Assembly: GCA_039096225.1 (NCBI GenBank) | Contig: JBBPEB010000009.1 | Coordinates: 1,550,001-1,614,000 of the forward strand | Length of the DNA stretch: 64,000 nucleotides | Source of the DNA: Blastocystis sp. Blastoise | Lineage: Eukaryota; Protista; Bigyra: Opalinata | Reading direction: 5' to 3' | In this document: piece after piece, positions 2,835 to 26,267 of the stretch | Layout: every line of letters starts with the position of its first letter | Numbering within the stretch: position 1 is the stretch's first letter | Made by a program: the position numbers and the translations under genes | The notes under the pieces: generated by a model | What the model saw: the letters and a program-made list of their open reading frames with translations, nothing else | Told to the model about the DNA's origin: nothing | Database searches by the model: none

Positions 2835-2882
2835 TTCTAGAACATTCTAGAACATTCTCGAAACTTCTAGAACATTCGAGAA
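2835..2882. promoter_or_regulatory. HSE-like nGAAn array (10 units) upstream of YR1
   Basis: TTCtaGAAcaTTCtaGAAcaTTCtcGAAacTTCtaGAAcaTTCgaGAA, ~90 bp before ATG 2971. Confidence 0.75.
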
Positions 2883-2970
2883 CATGAGAATCTTAGATAT
2901 TTTATTTTGATTTTCTTATGTATTATTCTTTTGAAAATAGAAGTTTTAGAGATTCTACTTGAGAAAATCA

Positions 2971-3906
2971 ATGAAAAATACAAATTATGACAAGTATCTT
3001 TTGGTTATACAGAATTCAAATTATTCTGATATTTGGAAAAAACGTTTAACCAATTATTTCAATTTATATATTTTCCCATTACCATTTAAAAAGTTCTCAG
3101 AATTCTTAAAGAATCCTTATTCATTCATGGATTATATGGTAAATGAACGTAAAATCAAAATTAGTCCAATGAAATCGTTATGTGAATTGATATTATTTAT
3201 TATACGTAATGTTTCTTCATTAAATAAAGAAGGTATTTTAAATAAATGGTGTGAATTTTATGTGATTATTAATGCAATGTATGAAAAATATCTGGATAAT
3301 AAGAAACGCACTTTGATTCAAGATCTTATTAAAGATGGTATTACGACTCCATATTTACATGAATATCACGATAAATTAGAAAATTATAATCCATTACGAT
3401 TAATATTAGATTTTTACTCCTATCTTCCTCCTGCTCGTGCTGATTATGCTCAATTATTCATTCTAACTCCAGAAGATACTATTGATCCAGCTATTCATAA
3501 GAATTATATTGTTTATGATAAAGAGAAACACACTGGTTCTATTCTATTAAATGATTATAAAACTGCTGGTAAATACTCTACAATTCAATTAGATGCACCA
3601 AAAGAATTGATTGAAGATCTAGAATTACTCTTAAAAAGAAATCCAAATCGTAAATTTATATTTGAATCTTCTGTAAGAACTGGATTTACTACTAAAGCAT
3701 TTGATTGGTTTGTGAATAAGCATTTAAAACAAATCCATCCAAAATTAACCATTAATGCATTAAGAAAATTATATGCTACAACTACAACCAATACATTCCA
3801 AGATATAGAAAATTCTGCTTCTGCTTTATGTCATAATGATTATACACATATTAATTCTTATGTATCTTTAGAAAATAATAATTTATTTAAAAAATTAATT
3901 GAATAA
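2971..3906 (+). CDS. Tyrosine recombinase/integrase 1
   Basis: Catalytic motifs PPARADY (R), LNDYKT (K), INALRK (xxxR), LCH and INSY (H and Y). Confidence 0.85.
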   Translation: MKNTNYDKYLLVIQNSNYSDIWKKRLTNYFNLYIFPLPFKKFSEFLKNPYSFMDYMVNERKIKISPMKSLCELILFIIRNVSSLNKEGILNKWCEFYVIINAMYEKYLDNKKRTLIQDLIKDGITTPYLHEYHDKLENYNPLRLILDFYSYLPPARADYAQLFILTPEDTIDPAIHKNYIVYDKEKHTGSILLNDYKTAGKYSTIQLDAPKELIEDLELLLKRNPNRKFIFESSVRTGFTTKAFDWFVNKHLKQIHPKLTINALRKLYATTTTNTFQDIENSASALCHNDYTHINSYVSLENNNLFKKLIE

Positions 3907-3972
3907 TTTTTAATATTTGTTTTGTTTAATAATTTTAATAACTAAACAACTAGTAATAAAAGGATATAAAAA

Positions 3973-4347
3973 TTAATTAAAAGGTAAGAAAGATAGATTA
4001 TTATTATTATTTTGATATTGATTTTGTTGTTGATTACTTTTCATAGTTGGCATAAACATATTATTGGGTTGAATAAGATTCTTATCCTCTTGATATTGAT
4101 TCTCATTCTTCATATATTGTTTATCCAATAGCATTTCAAGACGTTGATGAATCACAGGATCATCTATATAAAGTAACATGTTTCTACAATAACTCAATTG
4201 CAAATCACTAAGATTCTTGTTGTTATTATTATTTAAAAATTGTTCTAATAGATTCGCTATTTCATTCTTTTTGGATTTAATTCCTTCTTCTTTTAGATTC
4301 TTCATCACACGACAAAAATAAGAATAACTAAGATATTTCTTGTTCAT
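3973..4347 (-). CDS. Viral hypothetical protein (124 aa)
   Basis: ATG-initiated ORF preceded by a CCAAT box and an HSE-like array. Confidence 0.65.
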   Translation of the reverse strand: MNKKYLSYSYFCRVMKNLKEEGIKSKKNEIANLLEQFLNNNNNKNLSDLQLSYCRNMLLYIDDPVIHQRLEMLLDKQYMKNENQYQEDKNLIQPNNMFMPTMKSNQQQNQYQNNNNNLSFLPFN

Positions 4348-4442
4348 TATTTAAATTAGCCAATGATTAAACAAAACAAATTAATTATATAAAACACTAA
4401 TATAATAAATTAAAGATTCTACAAATAGAGCCAGTTCAAAAT

Positions 4443-4465
4443 GAATGTTCTAGAATGTTCTAGAA
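4443..4465. promoter_or_regulatory. HSE-like array (5 units)
   Basis: GAAtgTTCtaGAAtgTTCtaGAA, ~95 bp upstream of the ORF starting at 4347. Confidence 0.65.
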
Positions 4466-4605
4466 CGTTTCTTGGACATATAAAAGTAAAGTAAAATATA
4501 TATAATAATAAGAACAATTTCAATAACTGACAGTATTTCATTTACATTCTCTAAAATTTCTGCACTACGATCTAAGTAGTAATTGCCAAATCGTTTCTTT
4601 GTCAT
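4450..4605 (-). CDS. Small viral membrane protein (51 aa, one TM helix)
   Basis: ATG at 4605; hydrophobic stretch ILSVIEIVLIIIYILLYFYM followed by basic residues; own upstream HSE array and downstream TGTTTTGTT. Confidence 0.5.
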   Translation of the reverse strand: MTKKRFGNYYLDRSAEILENVNEILSVIEIVLIIIYILLYFYMSKKRSRTF

Positions 4606-4669
4606 TATAGTATTAAATAATAAACAAAACAAATTAATTATACAAAATATTAATATAATAAATTAAAGA

Positions 4670-4687
4670 TTCTAGAATATTCTAGAA
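4670..4687. promoter_or_regulatory. HSE-like array (4 units)
   Basis: TTCtaGAAtaTTCtaGAA upstream of the ORF starting at 4605. Confidence 0.6.
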
Positions 4688-4691
4688 TGTT

Positions 4692-5285
4692 TTAACAAGG
4701 CATAAGATTTCCATTAGAAAGTAAATAAAGTAAAGAATAATAAAAGCAACCATTTGCATTACTTGTAGTTTTTTGGTGTTGAATAGGATTATATTGAATA
4801 TTATGATTTTGAATAAATGATTTTGAGAAAGTAGGTTCATTTCCTAATGATGAATAGTGTTCTATGTTTTTATTACCATTATAAATAACAGCTTCAAAAT
4901 GACCATTATAAGGATCACTAGGACTTTCATGAAAGATCATATTAAATTTAGTTTGATCTTGATCTATATTTTGTTCAAAATCATCATAACTATTATAATA
5001 ATTATAAGATTGAGAATTTGTTTTATTTAATTGTTTCATAACATTTTCAGCACGATCACAAGCAACAGAAGAAGTAGGTTTATTTAAATAAGCATAATTA
5101 TATAATTGAGATATTAGAGAATTTGGTATATTACAATATTGAGATAGAGTTTGCTTAAAATTATCAGGGGATCTAGGAGTAACATGACGAGTTTTATCAG
5201 ATATAATAGGATTATCACAATTCATTGAATTTTGAATAAGTTTTTCATCTTTACTCTTTACCAGATCCCCTCCCCTGAGTTTTTT
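4692..5285 (-). CDS. Adenain-like capsid maturation cysteine protease, probably expressed as a -1 frameshift fusion to the upstream core protein (first in-frame ATG at 5225)
   Basis: GHFEAVIY..EHYSSLG..YNPIQHQ..NGCFYYSL matches the H...(D)SxG...Q...C pattern of adenain/PLV proteases; the ORF-track start at 5312 is TTG. Confidence 0.8.
   Translation of the reverse strand, partial: KKLRGGDLVKSKDEKLIQNSMNCDNPIISDKTRHVTPRSPDNFKQTLSQYCNIPNSLISQLYNYAYLNKPTSSVACDRAENVMKQLNKTNSQSYNYYNSYDDFEQNIDQDQTKFNMIFHESPSDPYNGHFEAVIYNGNKNIEHYSSLGNEPTFSKSFIQNHNIQYNPIQHQKTTSNANGCFYYSLLYLLSNGNLMPC
5164..5285 (-). promoter_or_regulatory. Putative -1 programmed ribosomal frameshift signal (A AAA AAC plus stem-loop)
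   Basis: Heptamer 5285-5279 is correctly phased in the core ORF; 8-nt spacer; GGGGAUCUGG (5270-5261) pairs with CUAGAUCCCC (5176-5167), extended by GAGUAA/UUACUC and AUGA/UCAU. Confidence 0.75.
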
Positions 5286-6886
5286 GATAACATATACTTC
5301 TTTTCTTTCCAAAACATTTGCTCACCTCTATCTAATATTTCATTATTATCCATCTTCTGTTTTATTGTTTGTAATTGTTTTAAATCATTTTTAGCTACCT
5401 TACGTTTCCTTTGTTCTACTTGTGCAGGTATTACAAAATCTGTATAAGCTGTTACCAATGGAGGTAAATCACCACCTCTTTTCTTTTTAGCTTCTTTTCC
5501 TCTTCTCATTCGTTCTAAGAATTCTTCTTTACTTAATTTAACTCGACCACCATAACCTCTACGTTTAGCTCTTCTTGCAGCTATTCGTTTATCCCTTTCA
5601 TCTTCTTTCCATTTTCTATCGACTTTCTCTTTATCATTTTGAGGGAAACCATAAATCTTATAAGGATAACTTTGTTCATCACGAGACATTGGCTTATAAG
5701 GTTGAGGAGGTTGAGGTTGAGGAGGTCTAACAACTTGTTGTTGTGGAGGTGGTGGAGGTTGAACAACGGGTTGTGGATGTAATCTATCATCTTCGTCAAG
5801 AGCATCTTGCATTTCATCAGCTACATCATAATATCCTTCAAACATCTTATTTATAGTATTTCCTGAACCTATTTGTTTTTTCATTTCATTTAATGCTTGT
5901 TGACGTTTTAATTTTTCCATTTCAAATTCCATATCATTTAATTCACTTGACTGTTGTGCCAAATGTGTATCATAATAAGCTTTTCTACCTTTAGCAAAAG
6001 AATCCATACCTTTATCAACTACACCTAAAAGAGCTGGTGCATAATTCATAACTCCATCCCAGAATCCACCACCTCTTTTAACTCTTAATATACCATCACC
6101 ACTTTCAGCTGAATCTAAATCTATATATTTTGGTATAATTGAAGGTCTTAACATTCTTCTTAATTTTGGATTCTTAATCATTTTCTTATTTTTAATTGCA
6201 TTCATAATTGCTGAAGCAACAGATATAGGAATCTTTCCACCACGTTTAATTTTATGTTCATAGAATCTTTTGAATTCATCATCAAGATCATGATGACCAT
6301 CACCAACATATTGAGCTAAAATAGCTAATGCATCACGAGCTTTTCTATTAGCTTTTTTATCTACAATAGCATCTCTTATATCTAATACATTTCGTTGATA
6401 CATATCTTTTACTTTATTTTTAATTGCATCACCAATACCAGAACCTTGATTATTCTCTAATTTATTGATTTCTGATTTATTTGGAATAATTCCTCTACCA
6501 GATTTACGTCTTGGTTTACATGGATTTAATACTTTATATTGACGATCTTCACCATCTATTTTATCTTCTTCTGGACCAGCTGCTTTCATTACACCTTTAC
6601 CTGCTGCTCTAGCACGAATTAAAGCACCATTTCCTTGTGGAACAGCATCTTTACCAAATGTTTTAGAACGATCTACATAATCATCTTCTTTACCATCATG
6701 TATTTCTTTACTTTCTAAAGTAGACACAGGCATAGATGAATTTGGACCTATTTCATGAAATATTGGATTATATTGATCCATTTTATGTAATGGCTGTGTA
6801 TTATATCGCCTATATTCTTTTCCTGTTGAAATTAAATTCATACCAAAAGTACCAGGACTTGGCATTCCTAAGATACAACTTTGCAT
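5258..6886 (-). CDS. Putative virion core polyprotein (basic; multiple xGG and GxG protease sites; amphipathic helix)
   Basis: KRGG x3, YGG, GNGAL, GKGVM, GRGII, GSGIG, GDGIL, GEGIW; Lys/Arg-rich segments; FWDGVMNYAPALLGVV follows RGGG. Confidence 0.7.
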   Translation of the reverse strand: MQSCILGMPSPGTFGMNLISTGKEYRRYNTQPLHKMDQYNPIFHEIGPNSSMPVSTLESKEIHDGKEDDYVDRSKTFGKDAVPQGNGALIRARAAGKGVMKAAGPEEDKIDGEDRQYKVLNPCKPRRKSGRGIIPNKSEINKLENNQGSGIGDAIKNKVKDMYQRNVLDIRDAIVDKKANRKARDALAILAQYVGDGHHDLDDEFKRFYEHKIKRGGKIPISVASAIMNAIKNKKMIKNPKLRRMLRPSIIPKYIDLDSAESGDGILRVKRGGGFWDGVMNYAPALLGVVDKGMDSFAKGRKAYYDTHLAQQSSELNDMEFEMEKLKRQQALNEMKKQIGSGNTINKMFEGYYDVADEMQDALDEDDRLHPQPVVQPPPPPQQQVVRPPQPQPPQPYKPMSRDEQSYPYKIYGFPQNDKEKVDRKWKEDERDKRIAARRAKRRGYGGRVKLSKEEFLERMRRGKEAKKKRGGDLPPLVTAYTDFVIPAQVEQRKRKVAKNDLKQLQTIKQKMDNNEILDRGEQMFWKEKKYMLSKNSGEGIW

Positions 6887-6961
6887 TTTTTTATTTCAAT
6901 TATAAAATTATTTATAAACAAAACAAATATATTAATAAAAAATAAATTTAACATTAAAAAT

Positions 6962-7555
6962 TTATAAATTAGTTAAATCAATAATAGTATCATTACTATT
7001 AGTATTCTTCGTAGATTTATCGATGACTTTAATAGAACGAGCATATAAACCAATATAATACTTGTTATTATAACGATGAATACCATGTATTGTAAATAGT
7101 ACTTTACATAACGTATTTGGTGGAATATACTTTTCACGTATTTCTTCGTAAGTTAACTTAGGATCTTTACCGATATTAATCTTCTTATCTCTTTTATCAG
7201 TGATATCAATAGTAACATTCTTCGATGCATTAATAGGTACTTTAATTGTAATCTTATATTTACCATTATCCATACGTACAAAATTAACAATATCACCATC
7301 AGGACATAATTCACATAATTTACGATAAAGTTCTTTATAAGCAGTTAAGAATACTTGATTATCATCTTCAATTGTTAATAAAGTCCATTTATCACGTGTA
7401 ACAATATAACCAAATAAACATGGTGTAGCATCAGTAGAAATACATACACGATGATTATTATTTAAAAGAACAGCATTTTCTTTGGTGTCATCCCATTGTA
7501 AATTAAAGTTAGAAGTATCAAGAATAGTAGGTTTTTTAAATTCAGTTGAAGACAT
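6962..7555 (-). CDS. Putative OB-fold single-stranded DNA-binding protein
   Basis: Beta-rich pattern YKITIKVP..IPPNTLCKVLFTIHGIHRYNNKYYIGLYARSIKV resembles viral gp2.5/NCLDV-type SSBs; HSE array upstream. Confidence 0.55.
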   Translation of the reverse strand: MSSTEFKKPTILDTSNFNLQWDDTKENAVLLNNNHRVCISTDATPCLFGYIVTRDKWTLLTIEDDNQVFLTAYKELYRKLCELCPDGDIVNFVRMDNGKYKITIKVPINASKNVTIDITDKRDKKINIGKDPKLTYEEIREKYIPPNTLCKVLFTIHGIHRYNNKYYIGLYARSIKVIDKSTKNTNSNDTIIDLTNL

Positions 7556-7632
7556 TTTTAGTTAAGTATTTAGTAAAAATATAAGTATTTTAATACTAAT
7601 ATTTTACGATATTCTTTTCAAATGAATCAATT

Positions 7633-7680
7633 TTCGAGAAGGTTCGAGAAGGTTCTAGAATGTTCGAGAAGGTTCTAGAA
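7633..7680. promoter_or_regulatory. HSE-like array (10 units) upstream of the SSB-like gene
   Basis: TTCgaGAAggTTCgaGAAggTTCtaGAAtgTTCgaGAAggTTCtaGAA. Confidence 0.75.
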
Positions 7681-7873
7681 AAAAAAGAACACTTGAATAA
7701 TCTAATGGAAACATTTTAACGGAATCGAACCATGATACTGTGGTTACATATTTCTTTAATAGATCCATTAGACCATTCAAGAATTCTATTTGAAACTATT
7801 CTATTCTCCATTTAAACTTTGTGTAATTAATTTAAAAAATAAACAAAACAAAATAATTAATTAAATAAATAAA

Positions 7874-8401
7874 TTAATGATCAAATATTTCAGACATAGA
7901 AGGAATAGAATATTCGGATAATAATGAAACAATTTCTTTAGAATCATCATGAATCTGTTTTAAATCTTGTTTCTGACTTTCAATCTTTGTTTTTAAATGA
8001 TCAACAGTACAATAAATACTATTTAATATATTATCAGCCGTTTCCATAGTTTGAAATAAAGATTCGAATTGACTGGATATATTTGTTAACTCCTCATTTG
8101 TAAATAATAAAGCTTGCTTATTAGGATTTGTATTTACTTGATCTTGAAATTGTATTGGTTCATTGTTAACCGAATGATATCTATCTGGATTTTTAGATAC
8201 GTAAACATCATTGATTGGATGAATTTCTTGAGGTGGATCTTCAAACATGATTTCGTCACGCGAATTAAAACAGAAATCATTATCATTGGGTAAAGCCATA
8301 GGATTTTCAGAAACACTATTTTCAAATGGATTCAACAAGGGGGATATCATGGCTTGACCGAAAGGGGATAAACTGGCAGAAAGACTATCAGGAATTTCCA
8401 T
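7874..8401 (-). CDS. Viral hypothetical protein (acidic/Pro-rich N-terminus, coiled-coil C-terminus)
   Basis: 175-aa ATG ORF with downstream TGTTTTGTT motif. Confidence 0.7.
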   Translation of the reverse strand: MEIPDSLSASLSPFGQAMISPLLNPFENSVSENPMALPNDNDFCFNSRDEIMFEDPPQEIHPINDVYVSKNPDRYHSVNNEPIQFQDQVNTNPNKQALLFTNEELTNISSQFESLFQTMETADNILNSIYCTVDHLKTKIESQKQDLKQIHDDSKEIVSLLSEYSIPSMSEIFDH

Positions 8402-8509
8402 GATTATTTAAACCTTCAAAAGTATTTTTATACAATATATTAAATATACTATTTTTAGTGTACAGTTCTTCATTTCAGTTGCTAACAAAAGCCTATTGCT
8501 TCCAGCTGG

Positions 8510-8688
8510 AAAATAAGCCAATAAAATAACTTATTTCGTATGACACATCGTCGTCATCGTCTAATTGTGTTTTACTAATTTTTTTATCCAATCAGATTAC
8601 AGATGCCAACTATACTCGTCATTGAAACACAAATAAAAAATGCTAAGTCGACAAAATTAGCCAATCAAATGAACCTTCTAGAACATTC
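8510..8688. promoter_or_regulatory. Divergent promoter with three CCAAT boxes and a 4-unit HSE
   Basis: AGCCAATA (~8516), TCCAATCA (~8587), AGCCAATCA (~8659), GAAccTTCtaGAAcaTTC (8671-8688). Confidence 0.55.
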
Positions 8689-8799
8689 CATAGAGATTCT
8701 ACACTGTCTCCTAGAATATTTAATATTCCATTTAAATGTATTATTTATTTCATTTTGATAAATACAAATTTTCTCTCTGTAACGATATTCGCGATTATA

Positions 8800-9423
8800 A
8801 TGCAATTTAATCTTTCTGCTGATTCCCGTAAATGTCTTCAAACTGTTCGTATGGAACTTCTAAAGAATTCTAAGAAGGCTGTTGAAGTTCATAAGAATGT
8901 TCTTCGTGATATTGATTTACATCAGTCTCAATTGAATAGAGAAAAGAATCTATTGGGTATTGCAAAATCTAAAGAACGTCTTGCTTCTTTCGAAGTCGAA
9001 AACTATAGATCAGCTTTAAAACGTATAAACGCGGTTATTAAAGGTCTTGAAGATTATGAAGAATTCGCTGCTGATATTTATACTCAACAACTTAATGAAG
9101 AACAAGATATTCAAGATATTATCAATACTGAAGATCTTTTAGAAAGTGATAGAACTACTATTTTATGTTCTGAAGATTCTAAAGAACATTCGAATTCTAA
9201 AGATGATGATTTTGATATTATGAAATTCCATATGGAAGATGGATTCCTTTATGATGAAAAAGGTAAAGTTTATTCTTATGAAGTTGTTCATGCTAAGAGT
9301 ATTAACAAGATTAAAAGAGATCCTTCAAAACAAATGTATTTCTGGGATGGTATTTTATATGATAAGAATGGATGGCCTCATTCATGTACATATATTAATA
9401 GTCAAGAACCAATTGAAATTTAA
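8800..9423 (+). CDS. Viral hypothetical protein (coiled coil plus two C-terminal DGxLYDxxG repeats)
   Basis: ATG at 8800; EDGFLYDEKG and WDGILYDKNG. Confidence 0.75.
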   Translation: MQFNLSADSRKCLQTVRMELLKNSKKAVEVHKNVLRDIDLHQSQLNREKNLLGIAKSKERLASFEVENYRSALKRINAVIKGLEDYEEFAADIYTQQLNEEQDIQDIINTEDLLESDRTTILCSEDSKEHSNSKDDDFDIMKFHMEDGFLYDEKGKVYSYEVVHAKSINKIKRDPSKQMYFWDGILYDKNGWPHSCTYINSQEPIEI

Positions 9424-9533
9424 TTTATTTTCTTGTTTATTTTTCTATTTTTACTTATAAACTTGTAAAAAATCATTGAAAATTGTTTTGTTTATTGTAT
9501 ATACATTTAAAACACTAAAGTATAAAAATGATG

Positions 9534-9671
9534 TTCTAGAAGGTTCTAGAAGGTTCTAGAAGGTTCTAGAACATTTAAAAATATAAAGTAATATTTACTA
9601 TTATAGAATGTTCTAGAAGGTTCTTGAATGTTCTAGAAGGTTCTAGAAGCTTCTAAAACTGACTTCTAGAA
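9534..9671. promoter_or_regulatory. Two HSE-like arrays (8 and 10 units) upstream of the primase-helicase
   Basis: (TTCtaGAAgg)n at 9534-9571; GAAtgTTCtaGAAggTTCttGAAtgTTCtaGAAggTTCtaGAAgcTTC at 9606-9653. Confidence 0.78.
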
Positions 9672-9739
9672 TCTTTAATATATTATTTGTTTTAAATGTT
9701 GTATTATAATTATTTTCATTATTTATAAGTCAAATAATC

Positions 9740-12700
9740 ATGGAAAATTCACAAATTCATTTTGTTTATACTTTTGGTTCCTTTAATCATGATAATTCAA
9801 AAGATAATCATAGTGAAATTATTATACCAAATCCATTACCATTTTATAAAAGTCTATTTACTAATTACCAACATCAAAAAGAATTACTACATTATATTGA
9901 TTGTACTCCTTGTAATACATCAACTAATTATAGAAGATTATGGTTTGATTTAGATTATCACCAAATATCAAATGATTTTTCTTTTCTAACAGATTCTTTT
10001 ATTCATGAATTTATAGAAGAAATGTGTAATCATTGTATTCATTATTATAATCAAGAATTTATTTCGCTTGTGTATACAAAGAAAGAAGTGAATAAGAAGA
10101 CAGTTCATAATGAAATACATTATTCATGGGGAATTCATATATATACAAATTGGTTTGTAAATGGTGATTATTTATTTTTCTTATATAATAGTATGATTCT
10201 GAATACAAAATTGGTTGATTTATGTAAAATGAATAATTTAGATATAAAAGAATTCATTGATTATAATGTTATTGGTAAACCAAGAAAGAATAATGGTTGT
10301 ATGTTTCTTGGTTGTAGTAAAGATAATTCTCCATCTACTTATAAATTATACGAAGAATATACCAATAAATCATGGAAGAAAATAGATGATGAAATCGATG
10401 AACATTATTATTTCAAAACATTATTGAATTATAAGAATGAAGATGATATTATAAGTGATATTATTAATCCTATTATTTTTTCTAAATTAAAACAATATTC
10501 ACGTTATAAACGTTATTATGCAAGATTAAATAATTGTTCACGTACTATATTATGTTCTATACAAGATATTAAAGATATTCCTATGTTGATTTCTACAGAT
10601 ACTATATTGGATACTACAGCATCTAAAGAAGCTTTATTAGAACGATATTTATTATTGATTGGTTCTATTGAAGATATGAATTATTTTGAATCCCATAATA
10701 CTTGGTATAAATTATGTTGTGCAGCAAAACAGATTTGTAATACAACAAGAGGATTAGAATTATTTAAAAATTATTCATTACGTTATGGTCATGATCGAAG
10801 TGATGATGTAATTGAATCTACATGGAATCATATACAAGTTGATCCTACTCATTTATCGAATAATTATATTTTGAAGATATTAATGGATAATAAATTATTT
10901 AATAAAGATGATGATAATGATTTCATATTTATGTCTATTTTAGAATGTATTCAATCCTTTAATCTTGTAGATTCACAAACATTAGTTATGTTATTTCAAT
11001 TATTAGAATTTAATGAAATTGTTTCTATTATATTAGATAAAGATAATTTTATCTTATATACATTTGATGAATATAATATCTTAAGACGTTGTAAGAATAA
11101 TTATGATATTAATTTCTTTGAAACCAAAATAACTACATTTATGAAATCAATTGTAGAGAAATTCAAATTATCAAGATTATATTCTAAAGAGAATGAACAA
11201 CATCAAAAAATAGTTGATAAAATAATGTCTGCTTCTGTTACTAATGAATATCATTATAAAGAATGGTTGAATCGTTATTTGAAGACTTATGGTAAATCTT
11301 ATAAAGAATATTTAGATACTTATATGGTTCATAAAGAACGTGTTATCTATACACAACTTGGTTATTTATATCCAAAAGAATCAACAGAAGAAGATCCTAG
11401 ACAATATTATATCCAACCATATCATAAAGAAGATATGGTATTTGAAGATTTATTAATTGATACTGAATTTAATGTAAGTTGGAATATTAATAATGAACAG
11501 AAAGATATTATCCAATTATTTGAACAACATATTGCAAGATATTGTGAATTCGATAAGAAATATGAAAGTATTATGTTACGTATCTTAACCACTGCTTTCT
11601 ATGTCAATACTCAGAAAACTGTTTCTTATATATTATATGGTAGTACAGGTAGTAATGGTAAAACAATAACAACTGATTTAATTTCTCGTATTGTAGGTAG
11701 TAATCAATGTATTATAGTAAATCCAGATAATTTAGAAGAAACATCTATAGCTCCTAAGATTGTAGATATGTCTAATAAAACAATGTATTATATGAATGAA
11801 TTAATAGAAGAAGATGTTACTGGTAGAAAGAAAACATTTAATCCATTCTCTTCTAAAGTCTTTAAAGAAATAGCAGAAAAGAAAGAAGGTGCTAGTGCTC
11901 GTAAATTATTCAGTAATATATTTACAAAAGTTCATTTCACGGGTACTTTATTTATGACAAGTAATATCCAACCTACTGCTGTGAATGCTGGTCCTATTGA
12001 AAGAAGAGTTTGTTTCTTACCTTCATGTTGTCGTTATTTCCCTCCTGGTAATGCTAATTTATATGAAGATTATGTAGATCATAATTTACCTAAACGTAAA
12101 CAGACAGTAGAAAAGAGATTGAAACCAAATCATTATGAAATGGATTATACTTTATCCGATAAATTCTATCAGAATCGTTCAATTATCTTTAGTTATCTAG
12201 TAAGTAATTATTTCTATTCTAGTATGCAATTAGATATGCATGAATTAGATAATGAATATCATATAAGTGAATGTAAGAAACGATTCTTTGATCGTAGTAC
12301 AGAAGGATATGATTTGAAATCTTTTGTTGATAACCATATTACTATAGATCCTTATTATTTGAATGTAGTTACTATTGAAGATATTTTTAATAGTTATAAG
12401 AAAGTGAATAATAATAATCAATTTACGATTAAGAAAGATTTAGATAAATTTACAAATGCTTTATTTGGTTGTTTAAGTAGTAAAGATACATTCAATTCTA
12501 TAGATATTGTGAATATTCATAGAAAACATACTTCAAATTTCTATAAGGGAGGGAATGCTATTGGTATTTGTGGTTTAATGATTGATAATACTTATAATGA
12601 ATGTGTAGATACAGATTTATTCTGTTTATCCAATTGTTTATCTAAGAAAGAAGAAATTGTTTATAGTGAAGATCAATATCATAATACGTCATCAACAAAA

Positions 12701-12742: not shown

Positions 12743-12786
12743 ATTTATATTTATTTTTTACTATAAAAAGTTGTTTTGTTTTAAAA

Positions 12787-14583: not shown

Positions 14584-14650
14584 TATTAAAAATTAAATTA
14601 TTTATAAACAAAACAAATTTATTATTAATATTTTATAACATTTCATAGAA

Positions 14651-15073
14651 TTATAAATGAAGAGATTGAACAATAGAATCAACACTTATATTTAATTTCA
14701 TTAATTGAACAGCTAATTCTTGTATTGATTCATTTTGATTAGAATCAATTTCTTCTAATTCATTCAAGACTTCTGATATATGTTTGACTTCTTCTTCTAT
14801 AATCGTTTGTTGTATTTTCATTGTCTTATAATAGACTTTCTTTGTTTGTGGATTACAACAATTACAATGAATATCTATATTTTTAACAATTAATTGAAAG
14901 AATTCAGTTGATTTCTCAAATAAACATTTTATAGCTTTTATAATAAATTCTAATAAAGTATTTTTCTTTTCTATTTCTTCTTCGGATAATGTGGTTGTTG
15001 TTGAACTATCTGAACTTGTTGAACTTGTACTTGATAAAGAATGTAAGGATTCAGATACAGATTTAGGCTCCAT
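14651..15073 (-). CDS. Viral hypothetical protein (Ser/Thr-rich N-terminus, HCNCC cluster, coiled coil)
   Basis: 140-aa ATG ORF flanked by viral intergenic motifs. Confidence 0.7.
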   Translation of the reverse strand: MEPKSVSESLHSLSSTSSTSSDSSTTTTLSEEEIEKKNTLLEFIIKAIKCLFEKSTEFFQLIVKNIDIHCNCCNPQTKKVYYKTMKIQQTIIEEEVKHISEVLNELEEIDSNQNESIQELAVQLMKLNISVDSIVQSLHL

Positions 15074-15142
15074 TTTTTAATAATTTTTAAATGAATAATA
15101 TAACAAAACATTTTTTAATTTAAATGAAATGACTTAAAATAT

Positions 15143-17578: not shown

Positions 17579-17649
17579 ATTTTCTAATTTATAAAATAAT
17601 AATTTATATTAATTTTATTTTATTTATTAATATTTTTTTATTAAAAAAA

Positions 17650-19122: not shown

Positions 19123-19298
19123 ATTTAATATTTCTTACTTACTATTCTTAACGTTAACTTGTTTAATTAATTCTATTCTATTCTATATTCCAATCATTTG
19201 TTTTGTTATAAAAATTTAAATTAATTAATAATTATAAAATATTATTATTATTTTATTTTTATTTTTGTTAAAAAAATACATAAACAATAATTATTAAC

Positions 19299-20522
19299 AT
19301 GGAAGGATTCCCAAGACAATTCTTACCTTCAAAGGCAAATCAAACTATTAAACCTGTACAAATTCCTATTCTAGTTTCTACTAGTCAAGATTTATTAAAT
19401 CAACCTTATCCATTTGAATTCTTATATAATTCAGTTGATAGTCCTTTTATTGATTTCAGTAATTCATTCTTAGAACTGAATTTCAATATTACAACAAATG
19501 CAGCTACAACTAGTTCTGTTGTACAACATTCTAATATCTATAGTATTATTGATAAAATTACTACAGATCTTACGTTTGTATCTCCTACGGGTCAAGATAT
19601 TCTTATTAATTATTCTGAATCTTCTATTGAATCCAGTAAAGCAAGAAAATTTGTTACTATTAAAGAATTAAGTAAAGATGAAATTGATAAATCTATGTAT
19701 AGTATGACTGAATGCTTATATAATACAACATTAAGTAGTATTGCTGGAATGCAAAGTTCTACTAAAGCTCAAGTTATTATTCCTTTATCTCTTATTACTG
19801 GTCTTGGTACATTTGATTGTGCTATTAAAGTAAAATCTTTGAAGATGCAATTCGTTACAAATTATTTAAAGAATCTATTTACAGGTACGACTAAAATCAC
19901 TGCATTAACATTTGATCGTGTTTATATTCATCTTCAACAAATCTATGATATTAATTTTGGTAATGATCCACGTGCTTTGATTAAATGTATTCCTAATAAT
20001 TGTCAAATATCTGCATTTACTACACCTGTTTATTCAGAAACATTCTCAACAGCAGGTAAACCAACTCCACAACAATTCTTATCCAATAGAAGTGTTGTTT
20101 TCGTACCTGATTACTGTATGCTATATTTTACAACTCAAGAGAAGAGTATGATTCCTATTAAGACTGAATTATTGAAGATGTGTCAATTCCAAATTGGTGG
20201 TCAAAATATCTTACCTAAGACGGATTTCCCTACTACGTATAAAACAACGAATCCATCACAAATTATTCCTAATGCTATGCTTTATAATACTTGGAGATGT
20301 AATAGTCATCCTCAATCTCCTTTAAATGGTGAAAAGTGGTATGAACAACCTATTTATATATTCCCTATTTCAAGTGTTGTTGATGTCAATACTCGTAGTG
20401 GTTGTGAAGTTAATATCTCCTTATTAACTGAATATAATGGTGCAAATATTACTAGTGGTACTTATACTTTATATGCTCATTTTATATTTGTTAAATTTGT
20501 TAGAGATGGTGCAACCAATTAA
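19299..20522 (+). CDS. Major capsid protein paralog B (double jelly-roll, inferred)
   Basis: FIDFSNSFLELNF, VIIPLSLITGL, QFQIGGQNILP; size and position next to the penton and ATPase genes. Confidence 0.8.
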   Translation: MEGFPRQFLPSKANQTIKPVQIPILVSTSQDLLNQPYPFEFLYNSVDSPFIDFSNSFLELNFNITTNAATTSSVVQHSNIYSIIDKITTDLTFVSPTGQDILINYSESSIESSKARKFVTIKELSKDEIDKSMYSMTECLYNTTLSSIAGMQSSTKAQVIIPLSLITGLGTFDCAIKVKSLKMQFVTNYLKNLFTGTTKITALTFDRVYIHLQQIYDINFGNDPRALIKCIPNNCQISAFTTPVYSETFSTAGKPTPQQFLSNRSVVFVPDYCMLYFTTQEKSMIPIKTELLKMCQFQIGGQNILPKTDFPTTYKTTNPSQIIPNAMLYNTWRCNSHPQSPLNGEKWYEQPIYIFPISSVVDVNTRSGCEVNISLLTEYNGANITSGTYTLYAHFIFVKFVRDGATN

Positions 20523-20618
20523 TTTAATTATATAATATTTTCTTATTTGTATCAACTTTATATTAATCTTAAAAATATTGTTTTGTTTATCAATACATAA
20601 TTAATTTATTTAATAAAA

Positions 20619-21290
20619 ATGACATCAATATCTCATCTAAGTAAAATTACAAGTCAAATCTGTCATGAACAATTCAATTATACTTTGGATTTAGTAGGTA
20701 AAAATATAACTCATATCAATACATTAGTGAATACAAGTGATATCATTAATATTCCTGAATTCAATATTCAGTTTTTTGATAATGCTGGTAGATATACATT
20801 TCCAGCTGGAAATTATACTTTAGAAGATTTTTTAGATCAATTATATGAAATTGGAAAAAAAATGAAATCCTATGTTGAAGGAGAACCTTATGGTTTCAGC
20901 TATAATAAAGAAACTAAAACTTTTAAATCAAATCATTGGTTTGAATGTGGTCTTAGTTCTGGACTATTTAAATACTTAGGCATTAAATCACCATACTTTT
21001 CACCGGGTGATACAATCGTATTTACTGATGAATATATATCCAATAATATTTCATGGTATAAGATCTATATGTTACGTGTGTATTGTGATATTATTAATAA
21101 AGATAATGATTTAATTTCTATTCCTTTATATGCTAAACAAGGATTTGATAATACATTTGCTCTCAGTGATTTATCTATTCCATGTATTGATGGTAAATAT
21201 ACAGATATCCAATGGGAAGTATATGATCAATTAAATAATCCAATTGATTTATCAAATACAAATCTTTATATATACTTTACTGCATCTTAA
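20619..21290 (+). CDS. Minor capsid protein (penton, single jelly-roll)
   Basis: FPAGNYT, LFKYLGI, LRVYCDII, IQWEVYDQLNNPIDL are typical mCP motifs. Confidence 0.8.
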   Translation: MTSISHLSKITSQICHEQFNYTLDLVGKNITHINTLVNTSDIINIPEFNIQFFDNAGRYTFPAGNYTLEDFLDQLYEIGKKMKSYVEGEPYGFSYNKETKTFKSNHWFECGLSSGLFKYLGIKSPYFSPGDTIVFTDEYISNNISWYKIYMLRVYCDIINKDNDLISIPLYAKQGFDNTFALSDLSIPCIDGKYTDIQWEVYDQLNNPIDLSNTNLYIYFTAS

Positions 21291-21359
21291 TAAAATCATT
21301 TATTTATCTTTAACTTATCATTAATTATTTTTTGTTTTGTTGATTAAAATCATATAAAA

Positions 21360-22397
21360 ATGGTGAATAAAATAAATCCATTAAAAGAAACACGTAAAGG
21401 ATGTGGAGTCTTAGAATTTAAATATGGAAAATCACATCATAAAACATATGAATCAAAATTTATATTGATTATTGCAAGAACATTCTCAGGAAAATCTTTC
21501 TTAACTGTGAATCTCTTATGTTCTATGGATCTTAAAAATAAATATAAACAAGTCACAGTAATTTGTCCTGATGCATCCAATAAGAATGAATGTTATACAT
21601 CCTTTCAAGATATTTGTGAACATGCTGGAATTGATTATAAATGGTATGATTCTGTAGATGATAAATTTAAAAAGATTAAAACTGTTGATGAATTAGTCAA
21701 TACATATAAATTACCAGAACATAATTTTATTGTATTGGATGATATCTATCCATTATCTAGACAAACCAAACAATTGATTGTATCTATATTATCTAAAGGT
21801 CGTCATTATAAACAGAATGCTATTATATGTCTTCAAAGTCATACAGATGTCACGAATCAATCTATATTAAGTCAAGTATCTCATTTCTTTATTAATAGTC
21901 AAATCTTAAAACGTGATCCTGGATTCTTACCAGATAAATTAAAGATTATGCCATCAAATCTAAATGAAATTCTTACAGATGAAGAATTAATGAATGATCC
22001 ACATCAATTCTTTATGTTAAAACAAGGTAGTGATGATTTAACAATATGGACTAATCCTGATTGTGGTAGTAAACAGAATGTATATAAGATGGTAAAGAAA
22101 AGGAAATGGACAGAAGAAGATAGTGAAAAAGAGAAACGAGAAGAACAAGGTGAAGTATCAGGTAGTGGTATTAAACGTCCTAATGAACATATATCTACAT
22201 ATGAAAAGAAAATGAAGAAGTTTTTACCTGTTGAAGAAGAAGTCTCATTGAAAGGTATTGAACGAGATGAAAAAGATAAACCTAAAGAATCCATCTTACA
22301 AATCATACAAGATCAAATCATACAAGATAGTCAACGACGCATTTTTAATCCTTATTTAAATAAAAAACATTATTCTGGTTATCCTTCTTTTCATTAA
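21360..22397 (+). CDS. A32-like (FtsK/HerA) genome packaging ATPase
   Basis: Walker A IARTFSGKS, Walker B FIVLDD, SKGRHY Arg finger, ICLQS sensor. Confidence 0.92.
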   Translation: MVNKINPLKETRKGCGVLEFKYGKSHHKTYESKFILIIARTFSGKSFLTVNLLCSMDLKNKYKQVTVICPDASNKNECYTSFQDICEHAGIDYKWYDSVDDKFKKIKTVDELVNTYKLPEHNFIVLDDIYPLSRQTKQLIVSILSKGRHYKQNAIICLQSHTDVTNQSILSQVSHFFINSQILKRDPGFLPDKLKIMPSNLNEILTDEELMNDPHQFFMLKQGSDDLTIWTNPDCGSKQNVYKMVKKRKWTEEDSEKEKREEQGEVSGSGIKRPNEHISTYEKKMKKFLPVEEEVSLKGIERDEKDKPKESILQIIQDQIIQDSQRRIFNPYLNKKHYSGYPSFH

Positions 22398-22450
22398 TTT
22401 TTTTATATTTTAATTTGTTAAATAAACCATAATTATTTTATTGTTTTGTT

Positions 22451-23488
22451 ATGAGTTCAATTACAAAAAGATATTTAAAACAAAATTGTGATCCACGATT
22501 ATTTGGAGGATCACCACCAAAATCAAATAGACGTGATCTTTATCATAAACGTTATGTAAGATATGGAGGAACTGGTTTTGAAGAAATTGTTAGACAACAA
22601 GCTAAAGATGCTGATTGGGCTGATTTTAAAAATGGTGTCTATACTGCATTACCTATTTTAGGTACATTAGGAGCATTTGCTGGATATAATTATTATCAGA
22701 AACGTAAAGAACAAAAACGTCAAGAAAAAGCAAAAGAAGAAAAGAAAAGACAATTTGAAGAACATATTGAAGATGCTAATAGAGATGATGAATTATATAA
22801 CGATGATGATACTTATCAACCAAAGAGAATAACAAGAAAAATGATGGCTGATGATGATAAAGATTATAATAATGCAAATCTTGAAGATGAAAATTATGAT
22901 GATATATTTGGTCAAGGTATACATAGAAGGCATCAGAAACATCGTAAAGAACATGGGAGTCACCGAGAAAAAGAAAAGAAAACAAGTAAATTTGTAACTC
23001 CTCAAATAAAAATTATTGCTAAGAAGGCTATTCGTTCTAGTAATGTAAAGTCTAATAAGAAGAAATTACAAGATATTAAAGAACGATTACCTAAAAATGA
23101 TGAGCATGTGTCTGTACGTGATATTGTTAATGTCGTTATCGATAAAGAATATCCTATGGATCCAAAACAAAAGCATTCTATTATTGCGAATACTGCTATT
23201 AAAACTATTAAAACGATTGTTCCTATTGTAGTGAATGCATTAAAATACTATTATCCTTCTCTTGGTATCCCTATTGATTTCGCTTATAATATGATTACTA
23301 CTGATGATGATAAGAAACGTAAAGAAACTGCTGATAACTATTTTAAAAATCCTAGTGGAAGTGGTGTTACAAAAGAGAATGCTGAACGTTGTGGTGGTGC
23401 TCTTGTCAACTCTACATCCTTTGATACTACTACTAATTTAATTATTAATCTTGTTCAATTCTTCTTAAAAAAATTTCATTTAAATTAA
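22451..23488 (+). CDS. Putative virion core/membrane-interacting protein
   Basis: LFGG, RYGG, RCGG, GQGI and GSGV sites; hydrophobic helix GVYTALPILGTLGAFAGY; basic blocks. Confidence 0.65.
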   Translation: MSSITKRYLKQNCDPRLFGGSPPKSNRRDLYHKRYVRYGGTGFEEIVRQQAKDADWADFKNGVYTALPILGTLGAFAGYNYYQKRKEQKRQEKAKEEKKRQFEEHIEDANRDDELYNDDDTYQPKRITRKMMADDDKDYNNANLEDENYDDIFGQGIHRRHQKHRKEHGSHREKEKKTSKFVTPQIKIIAKKAIRSSNVKSNKKKLQDIKERLPKNDEHVSVRDIVNVVIDKEYPMDPKQKHSIIANTAIKTIKTIVPIVVNALKYYYPSLGIPIDFAYNMITTDDDKKRKETADNYFKNPSGSGVTKENAERCGGALVNSTSFDTTTNLIINLVQFFLKKFHLN

Positions 23489-23564
23489 TTATTTTAACTT
23501 TTATTATTTCATAATTAATTATTTGTTTTGTTATATAATTATTTTTAAATTAATACAATAAATA

Positions 23565-24362
23565 ATGCAAAGTAATTTAGGAGATAGTGTAACTCTCTAT
23601 GATATTTTATCAAGAAATCAGAAAAAACAATCTTGGGATCCATGGTTACCCAATTCATATATTTGTCAAGATGAACAACCTGTACAACCATTAGCACATG
23701 ATCCTAATGCCCAAGGATCTATGTATAGCTCAATGGCAGTTCAAGCATTAAGAAATCATGGTCAATCACCTGAAGATATGTTTATAGCTACTATGAATTC
23801 AGCTAAAGCTAATGGTGATACCAATAGATATACATCCATGTTATCTCAATGGCAAACGAATTATGGTATTCCTACTACAAGTAAGATATGGTATGATGCT
23901 AGTAATCCTAATAACTATCAATATGAAAAACTTATTCATACTGTAAGAAATCCTAATGAAGACTATACAGTGAAACCACAACCAGAATCCATGAATTCTA
24001 ATTTCACTGAAGAACAACCCAAACCAGAACCTGAAAAGAAACCTGAACACGAAAAGAAACCAGCTAAAGAACCTGAAACTAAACCTGAAACTGAAAAGAA
24101 ACCAGATAAAGAAGATGATAATACTCCAAAGAAATTTGAATTCGATATGAATTTACAACAAGATACCGACGAAAAAACATATTATAACGCCACTTATGGA
24201 AAGTATAAATTCAAATGGTATACTGATGGACCTATTGAATGCACCAATAGTGATGTTTTTGGAAATAATAATATATTCTACAAAAATAAAACATTATTTG
24301 TTGAAGCTAATGATAAATCAATGAATATTGACGATTATTTAAAAAATACTCATAATAATTAA
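23565..24362 (+). CDS. Viral hypothetical protein with KPE-rich linker
   Basis: 265-aa ATG ORF; PKPEPEKKPEHEKKPAKEPETKPE. Confidence 0.75.
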   Translation: MQSNLGDSVTLYDILSRNQKKQSWDPWLPNSYICQDEQPVQPLAHDPNAQGSMYSSMAVQALRNHGQSPEDMFIATMNSAKANGDTNRYTSMLSQWQTNYGIPTTSKIWYDASNPNNYQYEKLIHTVRNPNEDYTVKPQPESMNSNFTEEQPKPEPEKKPEHEKKPAKEPETKPETEKKPDKEDDNTPKKFEFDMNLQQDTDEKTYYNATYGKYKFKWYTDGPIECTNSDVFGNNNIFYKNKTLFVEANDKSMNIDDYLKNTHNN

Positions 24363-24450
24363 TGATACTATTAATATACTAACTATATAATATAAATAAT
24401 TTCTTTTTTTTGTTTTGTTTTAAAATTCATAATTATTTTATTAATTTAAA

Positions 24451-25941
24451 ATGATACAAAGTGCTCGTTTAAATGTTTCAAATAAAGGATTAGTAGGCGT
24501 AAATCATCGTGCTACTGGTCATGAATATCGAAATTATATTGTTCCAGGATCTATTCCTGATGGAGAAGAACGTTATCCAATTAATTATTCTATTGCTCCA
24601 AATTCATTATATGCTGTTAAGAAAATTGAAAGTAATATGGTCAATAGAGCAACATCCAATCCATTTTTCTCCTATTTATCAGAAACCAGACAAGATATTA
24701 TACAAAGTTCCTTAGAAGAATCAGAAGAAAGTGAACCAATAGATGAAGGATCTGGGTTATTACCTGATGGTAGAATTCCGAAGAACTTTACAAGAAAACT
24801 CATTTATGCTCATGATTATGTCTTACCTTATATGAAACAAAATCATATGTCTGATTATGCTAAATATTCAAGATTATTAAATCCTCGTACAATTGATAGT
24901 GCAATTGATTTTACTAAAAGAGATCGTGATGGTTATTTATATTCTAGAGGTGGTAATTTATTTTCTAATATTTATCACACTGTAAGTGATGTATACAATG
25001 TGTCTGATAAATTAACTGGAGGTATTAATAATATCACTCATGGAATAAGTAATGCTGTTGATTATGGTGCAAATAAATTCAAAGATCTCAAGAATTGGTG
25101 GAGAGATATTAATGTTGATCCAAAAGAAGGATTCAATGATATTAAAGGAAAACTTGTAAGTGATAGAAATAATTTATATGATAATTGGAAATTAACTGAT
25201 GATAATGAAGCTAAGAAAAAGAATAAATTATTAGCTGATAACTATTTTAGATTTGCTCATATGTCAGGTAATGATACTAAAGAACAAAGACTTAACAAAA
25301 CTAAATCTTTAGAAGATCAAGCAAAAACATTTCATAAAAATTATATTCCCTATGCAGAAAACCCTACATTTGTTAATAAAGTTGTTAATACTGCAACAAA
25401 TGTAGGAACACCAATTGTTAATGGTGTTAAAAAAGTTGCAAACTCTATTGTTAGTGGTACAAAGAACGTATTTAATAGTTTTTCTGATTGGTGGTATGGT
25501 AAAAATCCAGAAGAAGAAATACCACAAACAGAAAATCCAATAGAAACAAATAATAATGTTATATCAACTCCTTCATCTACCCCTGATACTCTAACTCTAG
25601 AAAATATTCATAATATTAATATAGAAGATTCAAATCCTCCAAATTTAATTCCTCTTATGAATGATCCTACTGCTCCTTTACCTGATATTGTTCCAATGTC
25701 TCAAGCAATAACGAATAAATTCACTCCAAATAATACACCTGTAGCCCCGATTCCTAATCCAGTAGAAAATGTAACTCTTGAAAATAATAATAAACGAAAT
25801 AAAAAAGAAGATGATGAATTTCAATCATTTGATGAAGATGATGGTGAGGTATTTTATGATCTCGAAGAAGGTAATGGATTACGTAGAAAAAGACGTATTT
25901 CAAAAAATAAAAAATTAAGAAATAAACGTAGAAAACATTAG
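24451..25941 (+). CDS. Putative virion core protein with amphipathic helices and basic tail
   Basis: EGSGLL, SRGGNL and EGNGLR sites; two amphipathic segments ending in WW; RRKRR tail. Confidence 0.7.
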   Translation: MIQSARLNVSNKGLVGVNHRATGHEYRNYIVPGSIPDGEERYPINYSIAPNSLYAVKKIESNMVNRATSNPFFSYLSETRQDIIQSSLEESEESEPIDEGSGLLPDGRIPKNFTRKLIYAHDYVLPYMKQNHMSDYAKYSRLLNPRTIDSAIDFTKRDRDGYLYSRGGNLFSNIYHTVSDVYNVSDKLTGGINNITHGISNAVDYGANKFKDLKNWWRDINVDPKEGFNDIKGKLVSDRNNLYDNWKLTDDNEAKKKNKLLADNYFRFAHMSGNDTKEQRLNKTKSLEDQAKTFHKNYIPYAENPTFVNKVVNTATNVGTPIVNGVKKVANSIVSGTKNVFNSFSDWWYGKNPEEEIPQTENPIETNNNVISTPSSTPDTLTLENIHNINIEDSNPPNLIPLMNDPTAPLPDIVPMSQAITNKFTPNNTPVAPIPNPVENVTLENNNKRNKKEDDEFQSFDEDDGEVFYDLEEGNGLRRKRRISKNKKLRNKRRKH

Positions 25942-26015
25942 TTAATTTTAATTTATTTTATTTATTATTATTTTAAAAAACTAAACAATTTGTTTTGTTA
26001 TTTATAAAAATTAAT

Positions 26016-26183
26016 TTAAAAATCAATAAAATTCTTGATATAATCTTCGTAATCATCCTCACTTTCAGTTTGAATAGTATCCATTTCAGAATCACTATCA
26101 CTTAATTCATCAACTTCAAAATTTCCATAAGGTTTCCAATTACCTTCTTTATAATCTGGAGCAAATTGCTTTGGAGAATCCAT
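26016..26183 (-). CDS. Small acidic viral protein (55 aa)
   Basis: MDSPKQ...EDDYEDYIKNFIDF; HSE array directly upstream. Confidence 0.6.
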   Translation of the reverse strand: MDSPKQFAPDYKEGNWKPYGNFEVDELSDSDSEMDTIQTESEDDYEDYIKNFIDF

Positions 26184-26229
26184 AATAAATAGTATAAAAA
26201 TAGAAAAAAATGCATAATACAATTTATTA

Positions 26230-26267
26230 TTCTAGAAGTTTCGAGAATGTTCTAGAATATTCTAGAA
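26230..26267. promoter_or_regulatory. HSE-like array (8 units)
   Basis: TTCtaGAAgtTTCgaGAAtgTTCtaGAAtaTTCtaGAA. Confidence 0.72.

Follow-up and report, generated by a model that had tools for sequence, protein, structure and literature searches.

Eight arrays of alternating TTC and GAA triplets lie inside an integrated virus in this DNA, and the question they raise is what reads them: a heat shock factor (HSF) of the host, a protein of the virus, another host activator, or nothing at all.

An integrated virus with eight arrays

The window, that is, the whole 64-kb stretch analysed, contains a eukaryote-integrated virus genome of 25.0 kb (Table 1). It has inverted repeats of ~710 bp at both termini and two genes for double-jelly-roll capsid proteins, and close copies of it are labelled Blastocystis sp. 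Insertions of Polinton-like viruses (PLVs) are described as 15–30 kb long (PMC10120064), a range that includes this element with its terminal repeats. A double-jelly-roll major capsid protein was recognized from a predicted model and a fold match, and its second paralog through alignment; of the alternatives pPolB or primase-helicase, the latter was identified by its phrog_1156 match. The fold of capsid protein 2 best matched the capsid of the virophage Sputnik (E 8e-12) and also matched PRD1 P3 (E 7e-10), and the capsid sequence had only 10 relatives at E ≤ 0.001. Clustering at 90% gave 9–21 distinct sequences per gene for five larger element genes. Sister families of the provirus are 43–52% identical. 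Queries with the ATPase, the primase-helicase alignment, and the capsid alignment confirmed no locus of sister-element DNA in viral, metagenome, or genome contigs; one locus with arrays before a frame 30% like the start of the ATPase, but lacking the P-loop, was rejected as a chance resemblance.

Table 1. Positions of the provirus, its arrays, and its genes in the window
Feature	Positions	Strand	Remarks
Endogenous Polinton-like provirus	2114..27126	none	TTAT at either flank
Left terminal inverted repeat	2114..2824	+	first ~120 nt a G+C-rich hairpin, z -6.7
Array 1	2835..2882	none	10 nGAAn units; 88 bp upstream of YR1
YR1, putative tyrosine recombinase	2971..3906	+	311 aa; catalytic-type motifs by eye, aligned with YR2
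124-aa ORF	3973..4347	-	four helices predicted
Array 2	4443..4465	none	5 units; 95 bp upstream of 124-aa ORF; overlaps end of 51-aa ORF
51-aa ORF	4450..4605	-	hydrophobic stretch
Array 3	4670..4687	none	4 units; 64 bp upstream of 51-aa ORF (start 4605)
SSB-like gene	6962..7555	-	197 aa; Atlas matches 0.94-0.95 to viral clusters
Array 4	7633..7680	none	10 units; 77 bp upstream of SSB-like gene
Array 5	8671..8688	none	4 units; 111 bp upstream of 207-aa ORF; preceded by three CCAAT boxes (8516, 8586, 8659)
207-aa ORF	8800..9423	+	relatives within own cluster only
18-aa ORF	9476-9420	-	ORF start 9476
Array 6	9534..9571	none	8 units; 57 bp upstream of 18-aa minus-strand ORF, 168 bp upstream of primase-helicase
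Array 7	9606..9653	none	10 units; 86 bp upstream of primase-helicase
Primase-helicase	9740..12742	+	1000 aa; phrog_1156 DNA primase, E 2.4e-9
YR2, second putative tyrosine recombinase	12787..14583	-	motifs by eye; no upstream array
Capsid protein 1	17650..19122	+	paralog of capsid protein 2, 31% identity in alignment
Capsid protein 2, predicted double jelly roll	19299..20522	+	model pLDDT 64.7
Putative packaging ATPase	21360..22397	+	P-loop; phrog_2666, E 1.2e-10
55-aa acidic ORF	26016..26183	-	ORF
Array 8	26230..26267	none	8 units; inverted copy of array 1; 46 bp upstream of 55-aa ORF
Right terminal inverted repeat	26415..27126	-	97-98% identical to left repeat

YR1 had no match in Pfam, PHROG, or PDB, YR2 likewise had no profile or PDB match, and PDB sequence searches with the YR alignment and with the primase-helicase alignment returned nothing significant; the P-loop of the primase-helicase is kept in all seven rows of its alignment. 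The viral Atlas clusters matched by the SSB-like gene carry DUF5871/DUF2738 on 10–18% of their members, and we take these clusters to be SSBs. A fold search with the 124-aa ORF gave no match, the 207-aa ORF had no usable match in the Atlas, and the 223-aa and 811-aa ORFs showed no similarity to each other.

We scanned the whole window for alternating TTC/GAA triplets on a 5-bp grid and found exactly eight arrays of 4 to 10 units each, all at the positions given by the sequence-only reading, and no further array of at least three units. In 100 block-wise order-2 Markov resamplings, the expectation was 1.55 arrays of three units and 0.04 of four, and longer ones did not occur. TTCTAGAA is present in 21 copies in the element and in none elsewhere in the window, whereas TTC-N1-GAA and TTC-N3-GAA show no comparable excess (12 and 16 in the element versus 13 and 18 outside). 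A single 47-bp unit, present twice in opposite orientations (96%), makes up arrays 1 and 8, which lie at the inner edges of the terminal repeats; next to arrays 2 and 3 there is a duplicated 57-bp unit (93%). We therefore count about six independent arrays. The flanking host DNA is free of arrays, as had been noticed earlier, but this says little because no heat-shock gene was recognized there.

Resemblance to heat shock elements

Heat shock elements (HSEs) are inverted repeats of nGAAn (PMC12366260), and each of the eight arrays has at least three such pentamers in a row; the proposal that they follow the HSF-site pattern thus agrees with the published definition. The sequence-only reading had also held that only the spacers vary and that selection therefore acts on nGAAn. 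The former follows from how an array is defined, and array 6 comes close to a simple tandem repeat of 10 bp; a less circular test nevertheless agrees with the latter: in imperfect cores adjoining perfect ones, six of eight mismatches fall at the centre position (binomial 0.004). In 12 bacterial-looking arrays, by comparison, 37 of 47 mismatches affect the outer base, which indicates that those arrays keep TCTAGA and not nGAAn. Array variation in the provirus spares the TTC and GAA triplets, unlike that in the look-alike bacterial repeats. A similar array was found at another locus upstream of an Hsp70-family gene.

Promoter position and 3′ signals

Seven arrays end 46 to 111 bp ahead of an ATG, which bears out the ~45–110 bp proposed for YR1, the SSB-like gene, the primase-helicase, and four small genes. 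No array lies within 7.9 kb upstream of the capsid, ATPase, or YR2 starts, again as proposed. In addition, AGAAT(C/A)TTTAAT occurs four times in 64 kb against 0.48 expected, the pattern being derived from these same sites; all four copies are at or directly past an array and are aimed at an ATG 57–76 bp away. Weaker forms come after arrays 1, 4, and 8, and with two mismatches allowed the motif is barely above chance (31 versus 22). Because of the ATG distance of seven arrays and the ATG-directed motif shared by four, we read the arrays as promoters. CCAAT boxes were rejected as further evidence: five non-coding element matches to one pattern all lie near arrays, but six matches are coding and three are in host DNA.

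The poly(A)-type motif TGTTTTGTT follows 16 of 20 element stop codons at 11–76 nt (0.84 expected). It corresponds to the published Blastocystis poly(A) motif (PMC5608401) with one additional T; the exact published form is absent from the 64-kb window. Run X1, which may be DNA, yielded 75 contig pieces across 26 of the 30 bins of 1950-14700, and runs X2 and X3 yielded none; such contigs cannot rank genes, and we base no conclusion on them. In one contig, a 10-letter T run lies loose before 9419 and may, as a hint only, mark polyadenylation of an 18-aa ORF transcript.

Alternative readers of the arrays

One alternative, which we consider unlikely, is that the arrays bind a virus-coded protein (the primase-helicase, a recombinase, or the product of a small ORF) and work, as phage iterons and baculovirus hr regions do, as origins dispersed over the element or as enhancers specific to the virus. 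The alternating TTC/GAA grid is shared with phage origins inside initiator genes, where there is no HSF: among IMG/VR loci with at least six units, the grid lies within a long reading frame in 55 of 68, and 10 of the 13 array-bearing frames tested are phage replication initiators. The phage loci differ, however, in having one array, intragenic, with mixed bases at pentamer position 1. HSF prefers A at this position, and A occupies it in 42 of the 51 units that make up the seven left arrays versus 14 of 65 units of ten phage-origin loci, the units not being independent. Together with the 34-bp spacer between them, which has only 3 G+C, arrays 6 and 7 make an imperfect palindrome of 115 bp that is A+T-rich at its centre and adjoins the primase-helicase. 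This is an origin-like layout, and an iteron origin (repeats by the initiator plus an A+T-rich stretch) fits this pair but not the five promoters elsewhere. The placement of arrays 1 and 8 at the terminal repeats would also suit a viral protein, and the terminal hairpins are another candidate origin. The narrow array-to-ATG distance and the directional motif argue against such sites, as does the lack of a known DNA-binding family among the element ORFs, though most of these match no family.

It is quite unlikely that the arrays serve a host factor other than HSF that recognizes TTC-N2-GAA, or an HSF-family protein without a stress role in this anaerobe. The promoter position and the host-type 3′ signals are compatible with any host activator, and Blastocystis promoters are described as little known (PMC6395660), but the strict head-to-head, tail-to-tail alternation in 5-bp steps is the HSF signature, and the other two spacings are not enriched in the element. 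A third alternative, in which slippage and the copying of a single intergenic cassette multiplied 10-bp palindromic tandem repeats that are under no selection, is very improbable, since spacers vary between and within arrays around constant triplets and all arrays lie at gene starts, while the 16-kb right block and the host DNA have none, even though array 6 is nearly a pure repeat, arrays 1/8 and 2/3 are duplicated, and bacterial intergenic regions carry TCTAGA tandem arrays.

A proposed role of host HSF in early gene expression

We infer that the arrays are probably HSEs through which host HSF drives the early genes of the virus. The element, in which no RNA polymerase gene was recognized among 18 ORFs, would be transcribed by host RNA polymerase II; HSF trimers would bind the 4–10-unit arrays; and YR1, the SSB-like protein, the primase-helicase, and four small proteins would be made first. 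The array-less capsid and ATPase genes would come later, under other control. The earlier claim that arrays mark the recombination and replication genes holds for the primase-helicase, the SSB-like gene, and YR1 but fails for YR2, which has no array; the resulting split (three of four such genes versus 0/3 to 0/5 virion genes, Fisher p 0.14 to 0.048) is weak, statistically thin, and confounded by gene clustering.

A literature search on a Blastocystis HSF found no paper, and the supplements of three genome papers contained no HSF entry in the part examined. PF00447 gave no match in four large viral records, and likewise none in the control sequences. An HSF motif had two matches across all collected loci, both ascribed to chance. 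No repressor or switch was found in the provirus.

If HSF is the reader, we slightly favour a role in waking a silent provirus under stress over one as an activator already at work in cells that are growing or have just been infected. Stress-induced excision would be a further, less likely step. It is likewise conceivable, but doubtful, that this is a helper-independent PLV whose entire early programme (recombinase, SSB, primase-helicase) is directly HSF-gated, with its release from ~twenty chromosomal copies under heat, oxygen, or proteotoxic stress as the result. It would then be one instance of a strategy shared with CRESS viruses, which show arrays of a similar kind. Such a release would parallel prophage induction in a eukaryote, and we offer the analogy with SOS as a lead.

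Blastocystis can be transfected with reporters, and one working promoter has been reported (PMC6395660); the arrays are candidate strong or inducible promoters for this genus. Integrated PLVs are numerous in protist genomes, and the promoters of this provirus would point, gene by gene, to a host factor and a trigger in a cultivable genus.

Comparison with known systems

HSE-driven transposons and HSF-aided viral reactivation are already known; no report of HSE or HSF control in PLVs was found in the literature searched. The Dictyostelium transposon DIRS-1 is HSE-driven. Further examples are ONSEN (PMC13602373), LTR retrotransposons of Macrostomum (PMC12801592), and HSE-carrying Helitrons of Caenorhabditis (PMC6927752). 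Like the provirus, these are mobile elements with clustered nGAAn sites readable by host HSF. They have one promoter region or donated HSEs to host genes, whereas the provirus is a capsid-coding DNA virus with such sites at seven candidate promoters.

Latent animal viruses offer a parallel to what we propose here, in that host HSF works on their promoters as latency ends: HSF2 at KSHV ORF50 and EBV BZLF1 (PMC12047821), and an HSE in HIV-1 reactivation (PMC9367301). HSF acts there at one master promoter, whereas the provirus has long perfect arrays at each array-led predicted replication or recombination gene, YR2 excepted.

The MELD viruses of Blastocystis are likewise midsize dsDNA viruses with divergent virion genes, but they have PolB and a retroviral-type integrase (PMC8502044) in place of the primase-helicase and the two putative tyrosine recombinases of the provirus. 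Endogenous giant viruses of Ectocarpus resemble it as tyrosine-recombinase proviruses of a stramenopile, and an environmental cue reactivates them; the Ectocarpus provirus is, however, a giant virus that low temperature wakes in reproductive cells, and the words "HSF" and "promoter" do not occur in the main text of that paper (PMC13236599).

Mavirus/EMALEs and Tetraselmis PLVs are, like the provirus, small integrated dsDNA viruses in which promoter motifs predict the trigger. Their motifs match late promoters of the helper virus, and the source ties mavirus induction to the viral factory and not to host stress (10.1101/2025.10.09.676808). The motif of the provirus, by contrast, matches a host factor.

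Arrays and promoter layout

The element, a Polinton-like (PLV) provirus, carries eight arrays of alternating TTC/GAA triplets on a 5-bp grid, at exactly the positions that the sequence-only reading had claimed (table); its further claim that the flanking host DNA is free of them also held, as no other array with at least three nGAAn pentamers (units) occurs anywhere in the 64-kb window. Resampling of the window gave a chance expectation of 0.04 for 4-unit arrays and none for longer ones. Head-to-head spacers across the arrays were TA (20), GA/TC (6), and TT (1), and tail-to-tail spacers were CA/TG (10), CC/GG (9), and five others. Because arrays 1 and 8 share one 47-bp unit, inverted relative to each other, and a 57-bp duplication lies next to arrays 2 and 3, the independent arrays number about six, not eight. 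Between array 8 and the right terminal repeat, approximately 137 bp (26277-26414) without a left-end counterpart include a CCAAT box as well as the word TGACG.

Features of the element, in window coordinates
Feature	Position	Strand	Remarks
Terminal inverted repeats	2114-2824, 26415-27126		about 710 bp each; bound 25.0 kb
Array 1	2835-2882		10 units
Array 2	4443-4465		5 units
Array 3	4670-4687		4 units
Array 4	7633-7680		10 units
Array 5	8671-8688		4 units
Array 6	9534-9571		8 units
Array 7	9606-9653		10 units
Array 8	26230-26267		8 units
YR1, putative tyrosine recombinase	2971-3906		alignable with YR2; recombinase-type motifs by eye
18-aa basic ORF	9420-9476	-	faces array 6
YR2, putative tyrosine recombinase	12787-14583		alignable with YR1; recombinase-type motifs by eye
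Two paralogous double-jelly-roll capsid genes (490 and 407 aa)	17650-20522		tandem; 31% identity

Seven arrays end 46 to 111 bp before an ATG, close to the proposed 45 to 110 bp, and the genes they lead are those proposed: YR1, the SSB-like gene, the primase-helicase, and four small ORFs (124, 51, 207, and 55 aa). Array 6 is placed between the 18-aa ORF, which it faces, and array 7; at the stop of this ORF, one contig of X1 (a sequencing run of guessed kind, which may be DNA) has a loose 10-T run. As for the supposed split between gene classes, the capsid, ATPase, and YR2 genes all lack an upstream array, yet the difference is statistically thin (Fisher p 0.048-0.14) and is confounded by gene clustering. 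AGAAT(C/A)TTTAAT, a pattern derived from these very sites, occurs four times in the window versus 0.48 expected; all four copies lie at or after an array and are directed toward an ATG 57 to 76 bp away, and weaker forms trail arrays 1, 4, and 8. Judged from sequence, this layout, in which an oriented motif follows a symmetric array and the spacing to the ATG stays steady, is that of a promoter. In addition, of 20 stop codons, 16 are followed by TGTTTTGTT, against an expectation of 0.84; the published Blastocystis poly(A) motif (PMC5608401) is one T shorter, which suggests host-type transcription of the element.

Genes and relatives of the element

TTAT is present at both flanks of the element. 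Each terminal repeat opens with a G+C-rich hairpin of approximately 120 nt (left copy folded, z -6.7), a candidate origin or recombinase site; the end hairpins (2114-2234 and 27006-27126) are closed by a 13-bp inverted repeat. The 407-aa ORF has a predicted double-jelly-roll fold (pLDDT 64.7) and matches the Sputnik capsid (E 8e-12). For the 1000-aa ORF (primase-helicase) the match is to a family of primases, and for the 345-aa ORF to one of P-loop ATPases. The 197-aa SSB-like ORF resembles viral DUF2738/DUF5871 clusters, which we take to be single-strand binding proteins. YR1 and YR2, which may serve different steps, gave no matches in profile searches; an array was found at YR1 only, and YR2 also has no 3' motif. 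The 177-aa ORF at 4692-5225 (-) carries a GHFEAV stretch reminiscent of OTU-type proteases and had no profile matches. Left of the provirus, two ORFs at 19-1099 (-) resemble, by their motifs, fragments of a hAT-type transposase; a Pfam search of one of them gave no support.

Clusters at 90% held 19 sequences for the primase-helicase, 10 for YR1, 21 for YR2, 15 and 9 for the capsids, and 11 for the ATPase, and the listed named members were labelled Blastocystis sp. throughout; the element therefore represents a young multi-copy family, probably with a Blastocystis host. Relatives at 43-52% across the helicase region belonged to a second family labelled Blastocystis sp. and to ENA/Logan records. 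Searches of viral, metagenome, and genome contigs yielded no sister-element DNA.

Comparison with look-alike arrays

The arrays agree with the published heat shock element (HSE) definition (PMC12366260). The TTC/GAA pattern by itself proves little as to heat shock factor (HSF). Among 68 IMG/VR loci with at least six units, 55 had the array inside a frame of at least 100 codons, and 10 of the 13 such frames tested were phage replication initiators; these in-frame grids are probably origin repeats that mimic HSEs. The initiator frames with 6-10-unit grids are those of loci L006, L010, L022, L023, L026, L031, L034, L041, L042, and L052. A second set comprised 12 bacterial-looking loci (five Pfam-supported) picked from the 113 distinct loci in metagenomes that have three TTCTAGAA cores. 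Bacterial contigs L084:5001, L114:114, L128:5001, L139:5001, and L157:171 show TCTAGA tandem arrays of 10-bp period between genes, often near a start codon.

HSF prefers A at pentamer position 1, and this base was found in 42 of 51 units of the element's seven left arrays, compared with 14 of 65 units from phage loci. Mismatches of imperfect neighbouring cores were central in 6 of 8 cases in the element and at an outer base in 37 of 47 in the bacterial arrays. Both features appear to set the element apart from the two sets, as tendencies only, because units are not independent.

The element's profile is common to the arrays of seven CRESS virus contigs, and CRESS made up 6 of 12 matches in one array search, three of these being close kin. 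The CRESS arrays are possibly HSF-driven promoters in ssDNA viruses. Arrays of the TTCTAGAA type with 5-6 units lie in non-coding DNA of L053:1484, L068:998, L076:4978, L077:254, L083:3767, L079:315, and L074:446; Rep lies 99-135 bp beyond the array in L053, L068, L076, and L083, and some of the seven contigs have a TATA-like box. Two other small contigs bear TTCTAGAA arrays, L160:2928 near a Parvo_NS1-like frame and L120:1490-1640 near the contig end.

Discussion

The feature is real and unusually clean: on sequence grounds, a PLV-type provirus bears a set of candidate early promoters of the HSE type. We consider it fairly probable that host HSF binds the arrays and would thereby switch on the recombinase, SSB-like, primase-helicase, and small genes, the virion genes coming afterwards under other control. 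The bolder part of this reading, in which stress triggers silent copies, is held tentatively; an HSF at work in cells that are growing or have just been infected would fit the sequence equally well. Binding of the arrays by a viral protein is the main rival and seems unlikely; in its favour, the 34 bp between arrays 6 and 7, immediately ahead of the primase-helicase, contain three G+C.

The literature searched under Blastocystis and heat shock factor contained no Blastocystis HSF, and no HSF entry appeared in the supplementary files searched for PMC5608401 and PMC3681718, whose other files may list one, or in the two files of PMC3129679. Another stramenopile is reported to have HSFs (PMC3681718). 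Publications on Blastocystis viruses describe PolB-type MELD viruses (PMC8502044) and old reports of particles (PMC12835684). No HSE in Polinton-like viruses was found in the literature searched; its coverage was incomplete, so this virus family may already have a published description.

The arrays point to a candidate host trigger for the reactivation of PLVs, one that lends itself to testing. DIRS-1 is an HSE-driven transposon. So are Helitrons (PMC6927752), ONSEN (PMC13602373), and LTR elements of Macrostomum (PMC12801592); HSF is involved in the reactivation of herpesviruses (PMC12047821) and HIV (PMC9367301), and a Drosophila Polinton showed a slight rise following heat shock (PMC10627563). 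Other proviruses are woken differently: cold wakes those of Ectocarpus (PMC13236599), and giant viruses wake integrated virophages and PLVs via matching late promoters (10.1101/2025.10.09.676808, 10.64898/2026.07.28.741278).
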